The notes below the pieces were generated by a model. The model did no database searches and had not been told where the DNA came from. It saw nothing but the letters and a program-made list of their open reading frames with translations. 24,000 nt of DNA. Origin: Saccharopolyspora rhizosphaerae. GTDB taxonomy: Bacteria > Actinomycetota > Actinomycetes > Mycobacteriales > Pseudonocardiaceae. Both the position numbers and the translations under genes were made by a program. The stretch lies in assembly GCF_003931915.1 (NCBI RefSeq), contig NZ_RSAA01000006.1, positions 81,255 to 105,254 of the forward strand, written 5' to 3'. Shown here piece after piece: positions 2,929-22,761 of the stretch. How positions within the stretch are numbered: the first letter of the stretch is position 1; each line of letters starts with the position of its first letter.

Positions 2929-3186
2929 TCACCGGGTGGGGCGCTCTTCCTCGGGCATGGCCTGCCCCATCAGCTCCAGCCCGGACAGGGCCTCGTCCGC
3001 CTGCGCCCGGTCGACCTTCTCCACGGCGAAACCGACGTGGATGAGCACCCAGTCACCGGGAGCGAGGCTCCCGGGCTCGAGCAGCCCGATGTTCACCCGC
3101 CGCCGGGCGCCGACGACGTCCACGATCGCGAGCTGGTCGTTGTCGGCGACCAGCTCCACGACCTCTCCGGGAATTCCCAGGCACAT
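2929..3186 (-). CDS. hypC: HypC/HybG/HupF-family hydrogenase assembly chaperone (copy 1)
   Basis: 85 aa starting MCLGIPG (essential Cys2). RBS GAGGGAG lies upstream of ATG 3186-3184. Confidence 0.9.
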   Translation of the reverse strand: MCLGIPGEVVELVADNDQLAIVDVVGARRRVNIGLLEPGSLAPGDWVLIHVGFAVEKVDRAQADEALSGLELMGQAMPEEERPTR

Positions 3187-7432: not shown

Positions 7433-9216
7433 TCCTCCGGACTACCTCCGCTCGGCGAGTGCAACCGTTCCAGCGACTTCCCCTTGCCCAGGTACATGTG
7501 CACGCCGCAGGGCAAGCAGGGGTCGAAGCTGCGGACCGTGCGCATGATGTCGATGCCCTTGAAGTTCTCCCGGTTGTTCTCCTCGAACAGCGGCTGGTCC
7601 TGCACCGCGTCCTCGTAGGGGCCCGGGGTGCCGAAGCTGTCGCGCGGACTGGCGTTCCAGGGCGTCGGCGGGTACGGGTGGTAGTTGGCGATCTTGCCGT
7701 CCTGGATCACCATGTGGTGCGAGAGAACGCCGCGCACCGCTTCGGTGAAGCCGCAGCCGACCGCCTCGTCGGGCACCTCGAAGCGCTCCCAGGTCTTGGT
7801 GTTGCCGGCGTGGATCTCGGCCATCGCGCGTTCGGCGAAGTGCAACGCGCACGCGGCGGCGTAGGCCTGGAAGTAGGTCCGGGCGCGGTTGCGCTCCAGC
7901 GTGTTGCTCCACTTCGGGATCTTCCACTCGAGCTCGACCTCGGGCTTGAGCCCGGTCTTGGGCAGCCGGATCTTCACGCTCTGGCCGGTCGCCTTGACGT
8001 GGTCGGTCTCGACCTTGCCCGCCAGCGCGGTCGCCCACAGGCGGGCGAGCGGGCCGCCACCGGTGTCCAGCGGCAGGTGGTCCTTGCCGTCGTACCACCG
8101 CGGCGACATGACCCAGCTGTACTTGTCGTCGAGGTCGCGGCGCTGCGGGTGCGGGTTGGTGTGCTGGTTCCAGGGGTGGCGTTCGTCGACCGGGTTGCCC
8201 AGCGGGTCGCGTTCGACGAACTTGCCCTGACCCTTCCAGTCGTCGTAGTAGGAGCTGCCGAGCAGGATCCGGATGCCCAGGTTGATGTCGACCAGGTCGG
8301 TGGTGACCAGCCTGCCGTCCACCACGACTCCAGGGGTCACGAACATCTTGTTGCCCCAGGCGTTCATGTCCTTGTAGGAGAAGTTGCACACCTCGGGGTC
8401 TTGGAAGGCCCCCCAGCAGCCGAGCAGGATGCGCCGGTTGCCGACCTGCTCGTAGCCGGGCAGCGCCTCGTAGAAGAAGTCGAAGAGGTCGTCGTGCAGC
8501 GGCACCGCGCGCTTCATGAACTCCACGTAGCGCATCAGCCGGGTCGTGTAGTCGGTCATGAGCTGGACCGTGGCGACGGTGCCGACCCCGCCCGGGTACA
8601 ACGTGGAGGGGTGCACGTGCCTGCCCTCCATGAGGCAGAACATCTCCCGGGTGCTGCGGCTGACCTGCAGCGCTTCGCGGTAGTACTCGCCGGAGAAGGG
8701 GTTGAGCGCGCGCATGATGTCGGCGATGGTCCGGTACCCGTGCTTGTCCGCGTTGGGAGCTCGGGTGTTCTCCGCCTTCTTGAGCACGCCCGGGTTGGTC
8801 TCGGAGACCATCTTCTCGCAGTAGTCGACCCCGACCAGGTTCTCCTGGAAGATGTTGTGGTCGAACATGTACTCGGCGGCCTCGCCGAGGTTGACGATCC
8901 ACTCGCTGATGTTCGGGGGCTTGACCCCGTAGGCCATGTTCTGCGTGTAGCAGGAGCAGGTGGCGTGGTTGTCCCCGCAGATGCCGCAGATCCGGCTGGT
9001 GATGAAGTGCGCGTCGCGCGGGTCCTTGTCCTTCATGAAGATGCTGTACCCGCGGAAGATCGACGAAGTGCTCTTGCACTCGGCGACGGTCCGGTTCTCG
9101 AAGTCGATCTTGGTGTAGATCCCGAGGCTGCCGACGATGCGGGTGATCGGGTCCCAGTTCATGTCGACGAGCTGGGTCTTCTCCTTCTTCGTGGAAGGCT
9201 GCACTTTCGTGGCCAT
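7429..9216 (-). CDS. hhyL: [NiFe]-hydrogenase large subunit, group 1h/5 (high-affinity type)
   Basis: The 734-aa track ORF was trimmed to MATKVQPSTKKEKTQLVDMNWDPITRIVG (ATG 9216-9214), giving 595 aa. The L1 motif TSRICGICGDNH and L2 motif SFDPCLPCGVH match the group 5/1h signatures. After the His there is a 22-aa C-terminal extension (MYLGKGKSLERLHSPSGGSPEE), presumably removed by the endopeptidase. Confidence 0.95.
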   Translation of the reverse strand: MATKVQPSTKKEKTQLVDMNWDPITRIVGSLGIYTKIDFENRTVAECKSTSSIFRGYSIFMKDKDPRDAHFITSRICGICGDNHATCSCYTQNMAYGVKPPNISEWIVNLGEAAEYMFDHNIFQENLVGVDYCEKMVSETNPGVLKKAENTRAPNADKHGYRTIADIMRALNPFSGEYYREALQVSRSTREMFCLMEGRHVHPSTLYPGGVGTVATVQLMTDYTTRLMRYVEFMKRAVPLHDDLFDFFYEALPGYEQVGNRRILLGCWGAFQDPEVCNFSYKDMNAWGNKMFVTPGVVVDGRLVTTDLVDINLGIRILLGSSYYDDWKGQGKFVERDPLGNPVDERHPWNQHTNPHPQRRDLDDKYSWVMSPRWYDGKDHLPLDTGGGPLARLWATALAGKVETDHVKATGQSVKIRLPKTGLKPEVELEWKIPKWSNTLERNRARTYFQAYAAACALHFAERAMAEIHAGNTKTWERFEVPDEAVGCGFTEAVRGVLSHHMVIQDGKIANYHPYPPTPWNASPRDSFGTPGPYEDAVQDQPLFEENNRENFKGIDIMRTVRSFDPCLPCGVHMYLGKGKSLERLHSPSGGSPEE

Positions 9217-13550: not shown

Positions 13551-13554
<4 letters not shown>

Positions 13555-13862
13555 GCTCGGGGCTCCTGTTCCACACCGGGCTGCTCGACTCCGGCTTGCT
13601 TCGCCGCCTGCGCGAACCCGTCGCCGAACTCCTCCTCCAGCAGCCCGAGGTTCTCGAAGTTCGCTAGGGTCTCCAGCGCCGACTTCTCGTCCAACCGCTG
13701 GATCGCGAATCCCACGTGGACGATCACGTAGTCGTCGACCGCGACGCTGGGGAGGTACTCCAGGCACACGTCCTTGAGCACGCCTCCGAAATCGACTTCG
13801 GCCATCCGGGCTCCGTCTTCCGACCGGAGGCCGACGACGCGTCCGGGGACTGCCAAGCACAT
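13551..13862 (-). CDS. hypC: HypC/HupF-family hydrogenase assembly chaperone (copy 2, with an acidic C-terminal extension)
   Basis: The ORF was trimmed to [10 protein letters not shown] (ATG 13862-13860, RBS AAGGAGA). 103 aa. The C-terminal tail reads ...[28 protein letters not shown]. Confidence 0.9.
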
Positions 13863-14134
13863 GGGCACGGTCTCCTTCCGTGGCCGGGTTCGCGTCCCGG
13901 CGCGCAGACCAGCGCGAGAACGGCTCGTCGCTGTCGTGGTGGGGGTTCGGTCAGGTGGGTCCACGGAGAAGTGGTCGTCATGCTCTGCGTCGCACCTAGG
14001 CCGTGTGTAGACCTGCTCCACACCGCCTGCAAGTCGAGCTCTCTACGTGAAAATCTCGCGCATACCGTAGTTCCCACAGCTCACAGCGCATGCGGACGAG
14101 ATCATCCAGTCGCGCCCGGAAACACGGCTCTGGC

Positions 14135-16393: not shown

Positions 16394-16695
16394 CACGGAC
16401 TCCCTCCTGCCACCACGATCGCGGTGCGCTCGGTGTCCATGGAACCGCAACCCGCGCCCCTCCACGACCGGGTCCTCTGTGGACATGCTGCGACGATCCC
16501 CCGTTGTGAAGCCGAGAATCCTTCACGCGAGCAGGAGGACCGCTCGGGCGTCGGGCAGATCCGAGCGGCAGCAGGAGGCTGTTCACCATCGCGGCGCACC
16601 GCCGCCGGCAGCGCCTCGTGGCGAGTCGCGCACACCAGGAGTGGTGCAGGTGGCCCCGGAGCCGCCCAGGTCCTGCTACCGGTACCCGAAGGCGT

Positions 16696-17193
16696 TCAGG
16701 AGCGCTTGTAGACCTTGCCGTCGAGGGTGCGCGGGCGGTCTGAGGGCGGCCAGACGTACGGCATGTCGTCGGGGACGCCGTCGAAGAACCGCCGGTAGTG
16801 CTCGGGGTGCTTCCGCACCAACGCGGACTGGTGGCTGCGGTGGAACAGCGGGTCGCCCCACCACGGCGGCAGCTCTCCGGCCTCCGCGAGCTCGTCCTGC
16901 GAACGCACCGCGGTCAGCCCGGTCGTCTCCAGCAGGTCTTCGCGGATGCTCACCTCGCAGGTGTCGGGCCTGCCGGTCACGGTCCAGGCACCGCACATCG
17001 CGAGGCCGTAGCAGGCCAACGCCTCTTCGTACCCCGCCCACATCGCCACCGCGGGGTGGTGCTGCCAGCCGTACCCCTCCCGGGTCAGCGCGCGCAGCAC
17101 CTGCAGCGCTTCCACGCGCTGCTTGCCGAGCCGGCGATCATCGAGCACCGCGGCCGACTCGTCGAAGCTCGGGTACGGGAGGAACGTCTGCAC
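16696..17193 (-). CDS. T4 endonuclease V-like pyrimidine-dimer DNA glycosylase family protein ('MSMEG_6728-family')
   Basis: The N-terminus (V)QTFLPYPSFDESAAVLDDRRLGKQRVEALQVLRAL...HPAVAMW matches my memory of actinobacterial Pyr_excise-like proteins, which start MQTFLPYPDF...LGKQRVE. The start is taken as GTG 17193-17191. The track's longer start at 17220 is the alternative. Confidence 0.6.
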   Translation of the reverse strand: MQTFLPYPSFDESAAVLDDRRLGKQRVEALQVLRALTREGYGWQHHPAVAMWAGYEEALACYGLAMCGAWTVTGRPDTCEVSIREDLLETTGLTAVRSQDELAEAGELPPWWGDPLFHRSHQSALVRKHPEHYRRFFDGVPDDMPYVWPPSDRPRTLDGKVYKRS

Positions 17194-17273
17194 CCCTCCC
17201 GGGTTCCCGCACGCCACCACGGGTAACCGCCCACCGAGGCACCGCCGGTGTCCGTGCGCTCACGTGGACCGGG

Positions 17274-17297
17274 CGCGGTCGGTCCACCGACGGCGTG
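17274..17297 (-). terminator. GC-rich hairpin immediately after the NTF2-like gene stop (possible factor-independent terminator without a U-tract)
   Basis: GTGGACCG (17274-17281) pairs perfectly with CGGTCCAC (17290-17297), leaving an 8-nt loop. It lies 4 nt downstream of the stop at 17301-17303 on the minus strand. No T-run follows. Confidence 0.25.
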
Positions 17298-17300
17298 CCG

Positions 17301-17728
17301 TCAGCGGCGGCCACCCCGGAGCGCCACCAGCGCGGCCAGCGCGGCCAGATCCGCGGTTGCGCCAGCAACGCCCGGATCGCGGGCGTCGGAGGCTCTCCCT
17401 GCCGCGATCCGACCGTCGGAGTCCACGGTCAACCTGTCGATCACGGGGAGGCGCAGTTCCCGGTCACCGAGGTGAGCGAGCAGCACCAAGTCCACCACGA
17501 GGACCTCCCCCTCGGTCCACCACCGACGGACCTCCCCGCGGAGGTCGGGCATCAGCTCGAACAGGCGTCCGTACTCGTCGGCGAGAGCCTCACGACCTCG
17601 TCGATCCGGGAGCAGCGGTTGGTGCAGTTCCACGTCCGGGCTGAGCAAGTCGTCCCAGGCATGAGCGTCCGGCTGTGCCCACCCCCGGGCGACTGCTCGA
17701 CCACGCGCTCCGCTGCCGGGTCGACCAC
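17301..17728 (-). pseudogene. NTF2/SnoaL-like domain protein interrupted by a frameshift in a G5 run
   Basis: GTG 17728-17726 (RBS GAGAGGGAAG) opens a high-GC3 frame, VVDPAAERVVEQSPGG. The SnoaL-like body (WAQPDAHAWDDLLSPDVELHQPLLPDRRGREALADEYGRLFELMPDLRGEV...DSDGRIAAGRA) lies in the -1 frame, beginning right after the run CCCGGGGG (17682-17689). Upstream of that run, the body frame has low GC3 and no plausible start. Confidence 0.45.
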
Positions 17729-17888
17729 GGTCTTCCCTCTCACCTGCCCGCGCACGTCCCACAGGCGCAGGGAACACAGCGCCGAGCGCCACGTCAAGGT
17801 TGAACGCCCAGACCGGACGAACGCCGCGCCCCCGATCGCTGCGACCGGGGGCGCGGCGCACACCGCCACCACCCGAGGGCACGCCATC

Positions 17889-17908
17889 GCTGACGACATG
17901 TCGTCAGC
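17889..17908. repeat. 20-bp perfect palindrome GCTGACGACATGTCGTCAGC
   Basis: The sequence equals its own reverse complement. It can fold as an 8-bp stem with a CAUG loop on either strand. It lies in the non-coding stretch between the NTF2-like gene and the fusA/tuf fragments. Confidence 0.9.
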
Positions 17909-18024
17909 CTGCCGAAACACCACCCTGACCTGCGCGAACACGCACCGCCACGAAGGCGAGGCGCGACGTGGAGGGAGCGAGGGGGCGTCAACCTCGCGTG
18001 AGGACGTCGCGAGCGCTTCTGAGC

Positions 18025-18179
18025 ACGACTGCGCCGTGAGCAGCGCGGACTCGCCCGGCGTCTGGCGGGCGCCGCGTCTCGACCTGAGCAGCGGAGTCAA
18101 CAAGGTGGACAAGCTGGGTGCGGACTTCTACTTCCGGACCACGGACGTGACCGGCGTCGTGACCCTGCCCGAGGCGTGA
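18025..18179 (+). pseudogene. Chimeric gene relic: an EF-G (fusA) internal fragment fused in frame to an EF-Tu (tuf) domain-3 fragment
   Basis: Plus-strand translation gives ...[52 protein letters not shown]. The part VWR...[13 protein letters not shown] resembles actinobacterial EF-G (from memory ...[28 protein letters not shown]...). The part [16 protein letters not shown] is identical to EF-Tu (from memory ...[21 protein letters not shown]...). There is no start codon or RBS. Confidence 0.7.
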
Positions 18180-18252
18180 TCCCGGTGTAGTGCAGAACGC
18201 GCTCGGTCGTGGTGGTCCTGCCCGCATCGATGTGGGCGTCGTGGCGGAGGCG
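18178..18252 (-). pseudogene. EF-G (fusA) N-terminal G1/P-loop fragment in inverted orientation, abutting the tuf fragment
   Basis: Minus-strand translation gives RLRHDAHIDAGRTTTTERVLHYTGI, compared with EF-G from memory (K/R)(V/L)RN(I/F)GIMAHIDAGKTTTTERIL(Y/F)YTG(I/V). An in-frame TGA lies upstream at 18296-18294 and there is no start codon. Downstream the frame runs into the antisense of the tuf piece. Confidence 0.7.
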
Positions 18253-18458
18253 GGGCGCGACCCCGGTTCCCGGGCCGCGCCCCGCCTGTCGAAGTCATCC
18301 TCCCACTGCTCGTCCCTCGTGGACGCTCGTCAGCGGTCTCGATGACGACGACGTCGTACCCCTGGTGCGGAGAGTCCAGCGAAGCTGCTCCTACGAGCGC
18401 ACGCCCACCGTGGAGGAAGGCGAGCGGAACCACCCTCGCGCACAGCGGCGTTGCGGCC

Positions 18459-19307
18459 TCACCCCTTGACGGCGCCGCCGAGCTGGGCACGCACCAGGTG
18501 GCGCTGGCTGATCAGGAACACCACGGCCACCGGCACGGTCGCCACCAGCGCGATGGTGAGCTTCAGCGGCAACTGCTGCCCTTCGCCCAGCGCTCCGCCG
18601 ACGAGGCGGGCGAGCCCGACGGTCAACGTCTCGTAGCCGGGGCTGGAGGTCGACACCAGGTAGTGGGTGAACTCGTTCCACGAAGCTTGGAACGCCAGGA
18701 TGCCCAAGGTGACCACCGCCGGACGCACCATCGGCAGCACCACGCTCCACCAGCGCCGCACGACGCCCGCGCCGTCCATCTTCGCCGACTCCTCGACCTC
18801 GTGCGGGACCTGCTCGAAGGCCTGCTTCATGAGGAAGATCCCCATCGCGTCGGCCAGCAGCGGCAGGATCATCCCGGCGTAGGAGTCGAACAGCGACAGT
18901 TCCCGCAGGACGAGGAACTTCGGGATCAGCAGCACCACCGGTGGCACGGCCATGACCATCAGCACGCCGCTGAACACCGTCCCGCGGCCGCGCCAGCGCA
19001 GTCGTGCCAGCGCATAACCGGCCATCGCGTCGATCAGCAGCCGCCCGACGGTGACCGAGACCGTGACCAGCAGCGAGTTGCCCAGCCACAGCGGCACGTC
19101 CACCGCCGGGTCGGTGGCGACCCGCTCGTAGCTGCTGGTGTCGACCTGCTCGGGGATCAGCGACAGCGGGTGGGCCACCGCGTCCGCGTCCGACTTGAAC
19201 GAGGTGGCCACCTGGATGAGGAAGGGGCCCAGGTAGAGCACCGCGCCCACGACCAGCACGAGGTAGCCGAGGGCCACGCCCAGCACCCGGACTCGCTTGG
19301 TGCTCAC
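18459..19307 (-). CDS. Carbohydrate ABC transporter permease (MalG/CUT1-type)
   Basis: The ORF was trimmed to (V)STKRVRVLGVALGYLVL at GTG 19307-19305 (RBS GGGAGGAA, GTGA overlap with the upstream permease). It has six predicted hydrophobic segments and an EAA-like loop EESAKMDGAG. 282 aa. Confidence 0.9.
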   Translation of the reverse strand: MSTKRVRVLGVALGYLVLVVGAVLYLGPFLIQVATSFKSDADAVAHPLSLIPEQVDTSSYERVATDPAVDVPLWLGNSLLVTVSVTVGRLLIDAMAGYALARLRWRGRGTVFSGVLMVMAVPPVVLLIPKFLVLRELSLFDSYAGMILPLLADAMGIFLMKQAFEQVPHEVEESAKMDGAGVVRRWWSVVLPMVRPAVVTLGILAFQASWNEFTHYLVSTSSPGYETLTVGLARLVGGALGEGQQLPLKLTIALVATVPVAVVFLISQRHLVRAQLGGAVKG

Positions 19308-22721: not shown

Positions 22722-22761
22722 GATGTGAACGTTCAAACGCGTCGGTTTGAACGTTCACATC
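22722..22761. promoter_or_regulatory. 40-bp perfect palindrome containing two LacI-type operators in the divergent intergenic region
   Basis: GATGTGAACGTTCAAAC (22722-22738) and its exact reverse complement GTTTGAACGTTCACATC (22745-22761) flank a 6-nt spacer. Each arm contains the self-palindromic core TGAACGTTCA (22726-22735 and 22748-22757). The core centres are 22 bp apart. A degenerate third copy TGAATGTTGA lies at 22767-22776. Confidence 0.7.

Follow-up and report, generated by a model that had tools for sequence, protein, structure and literature searches.

A short intergenic mosaic of fusA and tuf pieces in Saccharopolyspora rhizosphaerae, most likely a scar of error-prone break repair

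The 24,000 nucleotides of Saccharopolyspora rhizosphaerae DNA analyzed here (the window) contain a mosaic of 142 nt, at positions 18096 to 18237, that consists of three abutting copies of str-operon pieces, all from the fusA–tuf part. We read it as most likely the harmless trace of error-prone break repair at a point of rearrangement and not as a regulatory RNA gene. We estimate a probability of roughly 70% that it is non-functional filler DNA, produced by a single repair event that was mediated by microhomology and switched templates several times on one fusA–tuf donor. No physiological role of the mosaic is evident.

Locus and synteny

The window has a G+C content of about 70–71%, and near the mosaic every gene lies on the minus strand, as judged by Pfam matches of the flanking open reading frames. 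A sugar ABC operon under LacI regulation (22736 to 18459, with its stop at 18459) lies on one side. On the other side are a SnoaL-like open reading frame (17301–17882), which is probably shorter than called, a pyrimidine-dimer glycosylase-like gene (Pyr_excise; 16696–17220), and hypF, hypC, hypD and hypE together with a [NiFe]-hydrogenase cluster. A non-coding gap of 576 nt (17883–18458) separates the ABC operon from this SnoaL/Pyr_excise/hyp block and holds the mosaic. The codon-position signal of the gap is weak and not convincing, and a six-frame Pfam scan of its 576 nt found nothing besides a fragmentary match to GTP_EFTU. Searches for phage and plasmid similarity gave no match of the gap except fusA itself, and comparison with the intergenic DNA of relatives gave nothing alignable. 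A peptide encoded on the minus strand at about 18361–18323, 'GYDVVVIETAD', resembles SRP GTPases and was rejected for want of Pfam support.

Several other elements of the window were recorded. A perfect 20-nt palindrome, GCTGACGACATGTCGTCAGC, lies at 17889–17908 in the gap upstream of the SnoaL-like open reading frame; its sequence looks like the operator of a dimeric regulator, and no regulator gene is adjacent on that side. At 22722–22761, between divergent genes for a LacI-family protein and a GDE_N-domain protein, there is a perfect 17-nt inverted repeat, GATGTGAACGTTCAAAC / GTTTGAACGTTCACATC, with 6-nt spacing, which probably serves the sugar operon as its LacI operator. Two genes of the HypC/HupF family (2929–3186 and 13551–14021, by Pfam) occur in one hydrogenase/maturation cluster. 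This cluster also carries DUF6084, DUF6390 and NifU-like genes, a composition usual for high-affinity [NiFe]-hydrogenase loci of actinobacteria.

Comparison with related genomes placed the mosaic inside a joint between two blocks of genes. The ABC operon is 82% identical to that of S. rectivirgula from 23998 down to 18453 (its stop codon), where the similarity ends. Within 57 nt past its ABC stop, S. rectivirgula has a hairpin and a convergent gene, while in S. erythraea a YkuD-domain gene neighbors the ABC operon instead; in both species a hairpin is found about 50 nt or less past the stop of the ABC permease gene. In S. rhizosphaerae, the first strong hairpin comes 172 nt past the ABC stop, and the segment 18288–18458 matches nothing. 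The rearrangement breakpoint may sit right at the ABC stop codon. For the other flank, the closest homologues of the glycosylase-like protein are 77–80% identical and belong to Saccharopolyspora sp. CA-218241 and S. karakumensis. They lie in unrelated neighborhoods, and the use of the Pyr_excise protein as an anchor for synteny on the left was rejected on these grounds. The junction of the ABC operon with the SnoaL–hyp block is absent from every other available Saccharopolyspora genome, the nearest of which are about 80% identical. Since both flanks have other neighbors in relatives, the joint is species-specific among the available genomes.

Three patches from two neighboring genes

The patches were compared with the fusA and tuf genes of Nonomuraea gerenzanensis, Nocardia farcinica and Tsukamurella tyrosinosolvens, taken from PLSDB, and with those on metagenome contigs. 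All of these references belong to genera other than that of the host, so that this comparison can reveal patches only where the gene segment is conserved; the mosaic, or the str-derived share of the 576-nt gap, may exceed 142 nt.

Two features of the reference collections themselves were also noted. The PLSDB "plasmids" NZ_LT559118.1 (11.85 Mb, Nonomuraea gerenzanensis), NZ_LN868939.1 (2.66 Mb, Nocardia farcinica) and NZ_LR134464.1 (224 kb, Tsukamurella) carry rpsL-rpsG-fusA-tuf and are chromosomes or pieces of chromosomes. On metagenome contig ERZ501054 NODE-77 (about 7850–8340 of the reverse complement), the fusA that precedes tuf is devoid of G1–G3, and unrelated sequence runs into '...RVLDGAVAVFDGKEG'; this fusA is either a product of chimeric assembly or a truncated or fused gene.

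Patch A (18096–18134, plus strand, 39 nt) corresponds to fusA codons 136–148, which include the NKxD/G4 motif, and reads VNK[M>V]DKLGADFYF. It is identical to fusA at 36 of 39 nt in Tsukamurella (E=1e-9) and 35 of 39 nt in Nocardia, and its alignment score was reached by none of 500 shuffles. Patch B (18126–18174, plus strand, 49 nt) corresponds to tuf codons 333–348 plus 1 nt. Its translation agrees with EF-Tu at 16 of 16 amino acids (about residues 332–348), and it matches Tsukamurella tuf at 47 of 49 nt (E=5e-18). The exact 49-mer (49/49 nt) is found in the tuf genes of five metagenome contigs, and patch B is thus indistinguishable from a real tuf allele.

Patch C (18177–18237, minus strand, 61 nt) is an inverted copy of fusA codons 19–39 plus 1 nt, covers the P-loop and reads AHIDAG[K>R]TTTTER[I>V]L[F>H]YTGI. 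It matches fusA of Nonomuraea gerenzanensis at 54 of 61 nt, with E=3e-13, or E=7e-12 against the 7.3 Gb of PLSDB. The minus strand from 18252 to 18178 translates to RLRHDAHIDAGRTTTTERVLHYTGI, which matches residues ~18–39 of EF-G among PDB proteins (phmmer, E=7e-6) and Pfam GTP_EFTU (E=5e-4). The 'RLRHD' end of this translation (18238–18252) has no homology, and the match at the DNA level is confined to 18177–18237. The rest of the 24-kb window showed no other resemblance to the str operon.

These results bear out what a preliminary description of this DNA had observed, and its interpretation in part. An inverted fragment from the 5' part of fusA is real, as the EF-G protein, Pfam and fusA DNA matches agree, and it meets the tuf piece head to head, the two being separated by only 2 nt (18175–18176). 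The description had also spoken of three short patches from two neighboring genes in mixed orientation, and pieces of 39, 49 and 61 nt from fusA and tuf are indeed present. The extent had to be revised: the mosaic spans 18096–18237 and not, as had been claimed, 18126–18252.

Attempts to enlarge the mosaic were unsuccessful. An upstream extension of patch A ('VWR..PR', 18060–18095) and an extension of patch C beyond codon 19 both scored no better than shuffles and were rejected. A 14-nt exact match of the hairpin arm 18253–18266 to 'LGATP' of Nonomuraea fusA was dismissed as chance level; a 14-mer in common with the references occurred in 49% of shuffles and in 24 of 28 other segments of the window. 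The 9-mer GGCGTCGTG, which occurs at 18153–18161 and at 18235–18243, was considered as a fourth micro-patch and is too short to be told from chance.

Junctions, edges and a probable common donor

Patches A and B overlap in a 9-nt microhomology, TTCTACTTC (18126–18134, plus strand), which encodes Phe-Tyr-Phe and belongs to 'GADFYF' of fusA as well as to 'QFYF' of tuf. Codon alignments show TTC TAC TTC at these sites in both genes of both Nocardia and Tsukamurella. The base on the 5' side of TTCTACTTC follows fusA and the base on its 3' side follows tuf. Because the same nine bases are present in both donor genes, the crossover between A and B is placed inside the microhomology.

The junction between B and C is of a different kind. 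Codon alignments leave 2 nt (CG, 18175–18176) that match neither donor: native tuf would go on with GGCACC, and the reverse complement of fusA would start with ...TTGAT. Microhomology at this junction amounts to 1 nt at most, which fits scars of the NHEJ type (0–4 nt of microhomology, a few added nucleotides, or both); the 9 nt at A/B are more typical of template switching or MMEJ. One simple mechanism does not fit both junctions, since there are 9 nt of microhomology at A/B and essentially none at B/C. For joining of the Ku/LigD type, the 9-nt microhomology at A/B exceeds classical use. The outer edges of the mosaic are sharp, as the 60 nt upstream of A and the sequence beyond C gave shuffle-level scores when compared with the corresponding parts of fusA.

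The A/B junction also bears on whether the mosaic exists in the organism at all. The source is a draft assembly (a 239-kb contig), and chimeric fusA/tuf reads might in principle have been mis-assembled into a gap. We regard such an assembly or sequencing artifact as having an almost negligible probability. Any single chimeric read is a rare event, and such reads do not add up to a consensus. The patches, for their part, are short, differ by substitutions from the expected genes and sit within unique sequence of a long contig, and a junction with 9 nt of microhomology is a biological signature and not the behavior of an assembler.

In the reference operons, the donor segments are fusA nt ~406–444 for A, tuf nt ~997–1045 for B and fusA nt ~115–55 (inverted) for C. 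From A to B the path moves about 2.8 kb downstream without a change of strand; from B to C it returns and flips. In Tsukamurella, Nocardia and Nonomuraea alike, a stretch of about 3.2 kb in a single operon includes all three donors, which argues for one donor molecule rather than three captures. Had the three captures been independent, we judge it extremely unlikely that all would have come from one stretch of 3.2 kb in a genome of several megabases, and we therefore favor a single donor, either a molecule copied with several switches or a fragment that had shattered.

The same observations could be explained by a larger ectopic copy of fusA–tuf, acquired by duplication or as horizontal DNA, that was later reduced to three pieces by deletions and an inversion. 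Patches A and B share a strand and keep their native 5'-to-3' order, a single deletion of about 2.8 kb between the TTCTACTTC repeats would yield the exact A/B junction, a single operon is the source of all patches, and the rearrangement junction is a possible entry point of foreign DNA. However, only 142 nt are left, with sharp edges and flanks that show no residual similarity. The 100% identity that patch B retains to natural tuf alleles speaks against long neutral decay, and the inverted patch C abutting B needs further precise events. We consider such a relic unlikely. In practice, it differs from a filler origin only in the number and timing of events.

The pieces as gene debris

The pieces do not constitute a gene. 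They comprise only 13, 16 and 21 codons of fusA or tuf, one of them inverted, which is too little for either a gene or a pseudogene, and the Pfam GTP_EFTU match covers 28 of 188 positions and remains under the gathering score. The differences between patch B and the reference genes are synonymous only. In patch A, a single codon specifies a different amino acid (ATG to GTG in NKMD), and patch C has three amino-acid-changing differences from all three reference EF-Gs. The presence of such changes in C and their absence in B may reflect either uneven mutation or the native sequence of the host.

One of the changes in patch C can be interpreted further. The lysine of the P-loop is invariant in P-loop GTPases, and its codon in patch C is AGG (Arg) in place of AAG. 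AGG at this position cannot be native to a GTPase. Furthermore, the in-frame fusion of A and B stops at a TGA (18178–18180). Two open reading frames run across the mosaic, one of 566 aa on the plus strand (16479–18179) and one of 120 aa on the minus strand (18128–18490); both overlap real minus-strand genes, and in our view they are spurious and owe their length to the high G+C of this DNA. The mutated P-loop codon, the TGA stop and the spurious nature of the spanning reading frames indicate that the pieces are debris of genes and not a gene.

Antisense potential and the flanking hairpins

A transcript of the mosaic could in theory act in trans as an antisense RNA on tuf (49 nt) and fusA (39 nt on one strand or 61 nt on the other) and so tune the elongation factors. 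A minus-strand transcript would hold antisense tuf (49 nt) and antisense to the G4 region of fusA (39 nt), and a plus-strand transcript would hold antisense to fusA codons 19–39. It had been suggested that either RNA would carry a perfect or near-perfect antisense segment. This may hold for tuf, where patch B is identical to real alleles, with no amino-acid changes, and pairing would be perfect should the host tuf have this sequence. It fails as a claim of perfect pairing for fusA, given the AGG codon in the P-loop. Patch C carries several mismatches, this codon among them, and targets codons 19–39, outside the translation-initiation region.

Two very stable G+C-rich hairpins enclose a segment of about 390 nt that contains the mosaic and could stabilize or terminate a transcript. 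The first, at 18248–18287 between the ABC stop and the mosaic, has a 16-bp G+C stem (-40.7 kcal/mol on the minus strand, z=-3.8). The second, at 17822–17858 on the other side of the mosaic, reaches -47.6 kcal/mol (z=-5.4). The two hairpins share the 10-mer GCCGCGCCCC, which is absent elsewhere in the 24 kb (3 matches compared to 0.8 expected, with 4 of 100 shuffles reaching 3), and both may be members of one family of palindromic repeats that resemble terminators. The assertion that no convincing terminator follows the ABC stop overlooked the stem at 18248–18287, which is likely to be a transcription barrier or a terminator, although termination by hairpins lacking a U tail is debated for actinomycetes. 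Simple read-through from the ABC operon into the mosaic is doubtful because this very stable hairpin stands between them. The same hairpin is possibly a fragile palindrome: long inverted repeats are known to be unstable, and this one, adjacent to the mosaic, could for this reason have been the fragile site.

Searches for signs of expression and conservation gave no support to an antisense function. No consensus promoter of the sigma-70 type and no U-tailed terminator were found at the mosaic. The promoter scan is a weak argument at 71% G+C, since -10 hexamers of the form TANNNT are nearly absent window-wide: none occurs in 17701–18470 and only five occur in the whole window, which makes their absence near the mosaic uninformative, and scans of the -10 type say little in this genome. 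The scarcity of the hexamer is an observation in itself, as the five occurrences on both strands of 24 kb compare with about 4.7 expected from composition for the 770 nt of 17701–18470 alone.

A search of Rfam gave no match at E<=1, and the fold of the mosaic is unremarkable compared to shuffles (z of 0.15 and -0.69). Searches of the metagenome and viral collections did not find the A/B hybrid junction, and the mosaic is absent from the syntenic regions of S. rectivirgula and S. erythraea, which belong to the nearest available genomes yet are only about 80% identical. The mRNAs of tuf and fusA are among the most abundant in the cell, and a weak intergenic transcript could hardly titrate them. 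None of these results supports a trans-acting antisense RNA, which we consider very unlikely.

Compared to known trans-acting antisense sRNAs, the mosaic is similar in having long complementarity to distant mRNAs and stable flanking hairpins. It differs from them in that neither a promoter nor a family match, a conserved structure or conservation was found, and in that its complementarity lies deep in coding regions and consists of plain gene fragments instead of an evolved seed.

A proposed multi-switch repair event

A filler origin of the mosaic can be described as a series of steps. A broken or stalled 3' end would have primed synthesis on an ectopic single molecule that spans fusA–tuf, and fusA nt ~406–444 would have been copied. 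Within the TTCTACTTC microhomology, synthesis would then have switched to tuf nt ~997–1045, about 2.8 kb downstream on the same strand. The product would next have been linked, through 2 extra nt, to a segment from the 5' part of fusA in inverted orientation (nt ~115–55) and last to the recipient flank. Such an event would be of the MMBIR/FoSTeS type and possibly completed by Ku/LigD end joining. The break, its position, the order of the switches, the enzymes, the outer junctions with the recipient and the host's own str operon as the donor are what we infer from the arrangement of the patches.

The earlier suggestion of multi-patch filler DNA, formed by template switching or NHEJ, is in good agreement with these data: it fits the patches, the 9-nt microhomology, the 2 extra nt, the sharp edges, the mutated codon and the position at a synteny junction. 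As expected of a repair scar, short segments near-identical to genes elsewhere lie in unrelated flanks, as measured against fusA and tuf of other genera.

MMBIR/FoSTeS and the quasipalindrome-associated template switching of E. coli produce several short templated segments, in direct and inverted orientation, with joints at microhomologies and with point changes nearby. The mosaic resembles the products of MMBIR/FoSTeS in that its segments come from a limited region, are both direct and inverted, include a microhomology joint and show point changes; the three templated segments, in both orientations, go back to one restricted donor region. It differs from them in two respects. First, the donors in MMBIR/FoSTeS are usually near the acceptor, whereas the str operon lies outside the 24-kb window. 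Second, the B/C junction is devoid of clear microhomology.

Captured DNA at chromosomal breaks has been described in several bacteria. In Streptomyces ambofaciens, I-SceI breaks were healed with 30, 42 and 83 bp of endogenous DNA, and with pieces of up to 18.8 kb (Hoff et al. 2018, PMC5869714). In Sinorhizobium, chromosomal breaks were shown to take up DNA through NHEJ (Dupuy et al. 2019, PMC6379672). In Acinetobacter, SPDIR inserts ectopic single strands of 3 to ~100 nt at microhomologies (bioRxiv 10.1101/2023.11.22.568220).

The mosaic is similar to the scars of S. ambofaciens (PMC5869714) in that the host is an actinomycete, short pieces of presumably its own DNA (39, 49 and 61 nt here) sit at a non-homologous joint, and a junction shows extra nucleotides with little or no homology. 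It is unlike the scars of Hoff et al. and Dupuy et al. in that theirs are single inserts at an engineered I-SceI break with a known empty site, whereas three patches from one operon are found here. Furthermore, the mosaic is natural and one of its junctions has 9 nt of microhomology, and its break and its Ku/LigD dependence are deduced.

With SPDIR, the mosaic has in common that ectopic strands from the same or another genome act at (extended) microhomologies and give "microindels" of unrelated sequence. SPDIR events are single patches, annealed to the recipient at both ends, in contrast to the three patches of the mosaic, and a donor in three pieces, partly inverted, is not known to have been described for SPDIR.

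A further possibility concerns the nature of the template. The patches could have been copied from str-operon mRNA, by reverse transcription or RNA-templated repair with jumps at microhomologies, or the pieces could have been co-opted as an antisense RNA that tunes EF-Tu and EF-G. A single transcript, of two genes that are among the most highly expressed, holds all three pieces, and patch B is an unmutated copy; both facts are compatible with these ideas, although nothing speaks specifically for either. We give them very little credence. If the mRNA were the template, the mosaic would be a natural record of the flow of information from RNA to the genome in an actinomycete.

Implications

If the mosaic is filler DNA, as we favor, it provides a clean natural case of what has so far been seen mainly in engineered break-repair experiments with actinomycetes. 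The finding also holds a caution for annotators, as isolated intergenic hits to GTP_EFTU can be debris of repair. For the genus, and provided that this reading is true, the mosaic would be a datable, sequence-level footprint of mutagenic break repair amid the shuffling of Saccharopolyspora genomes.
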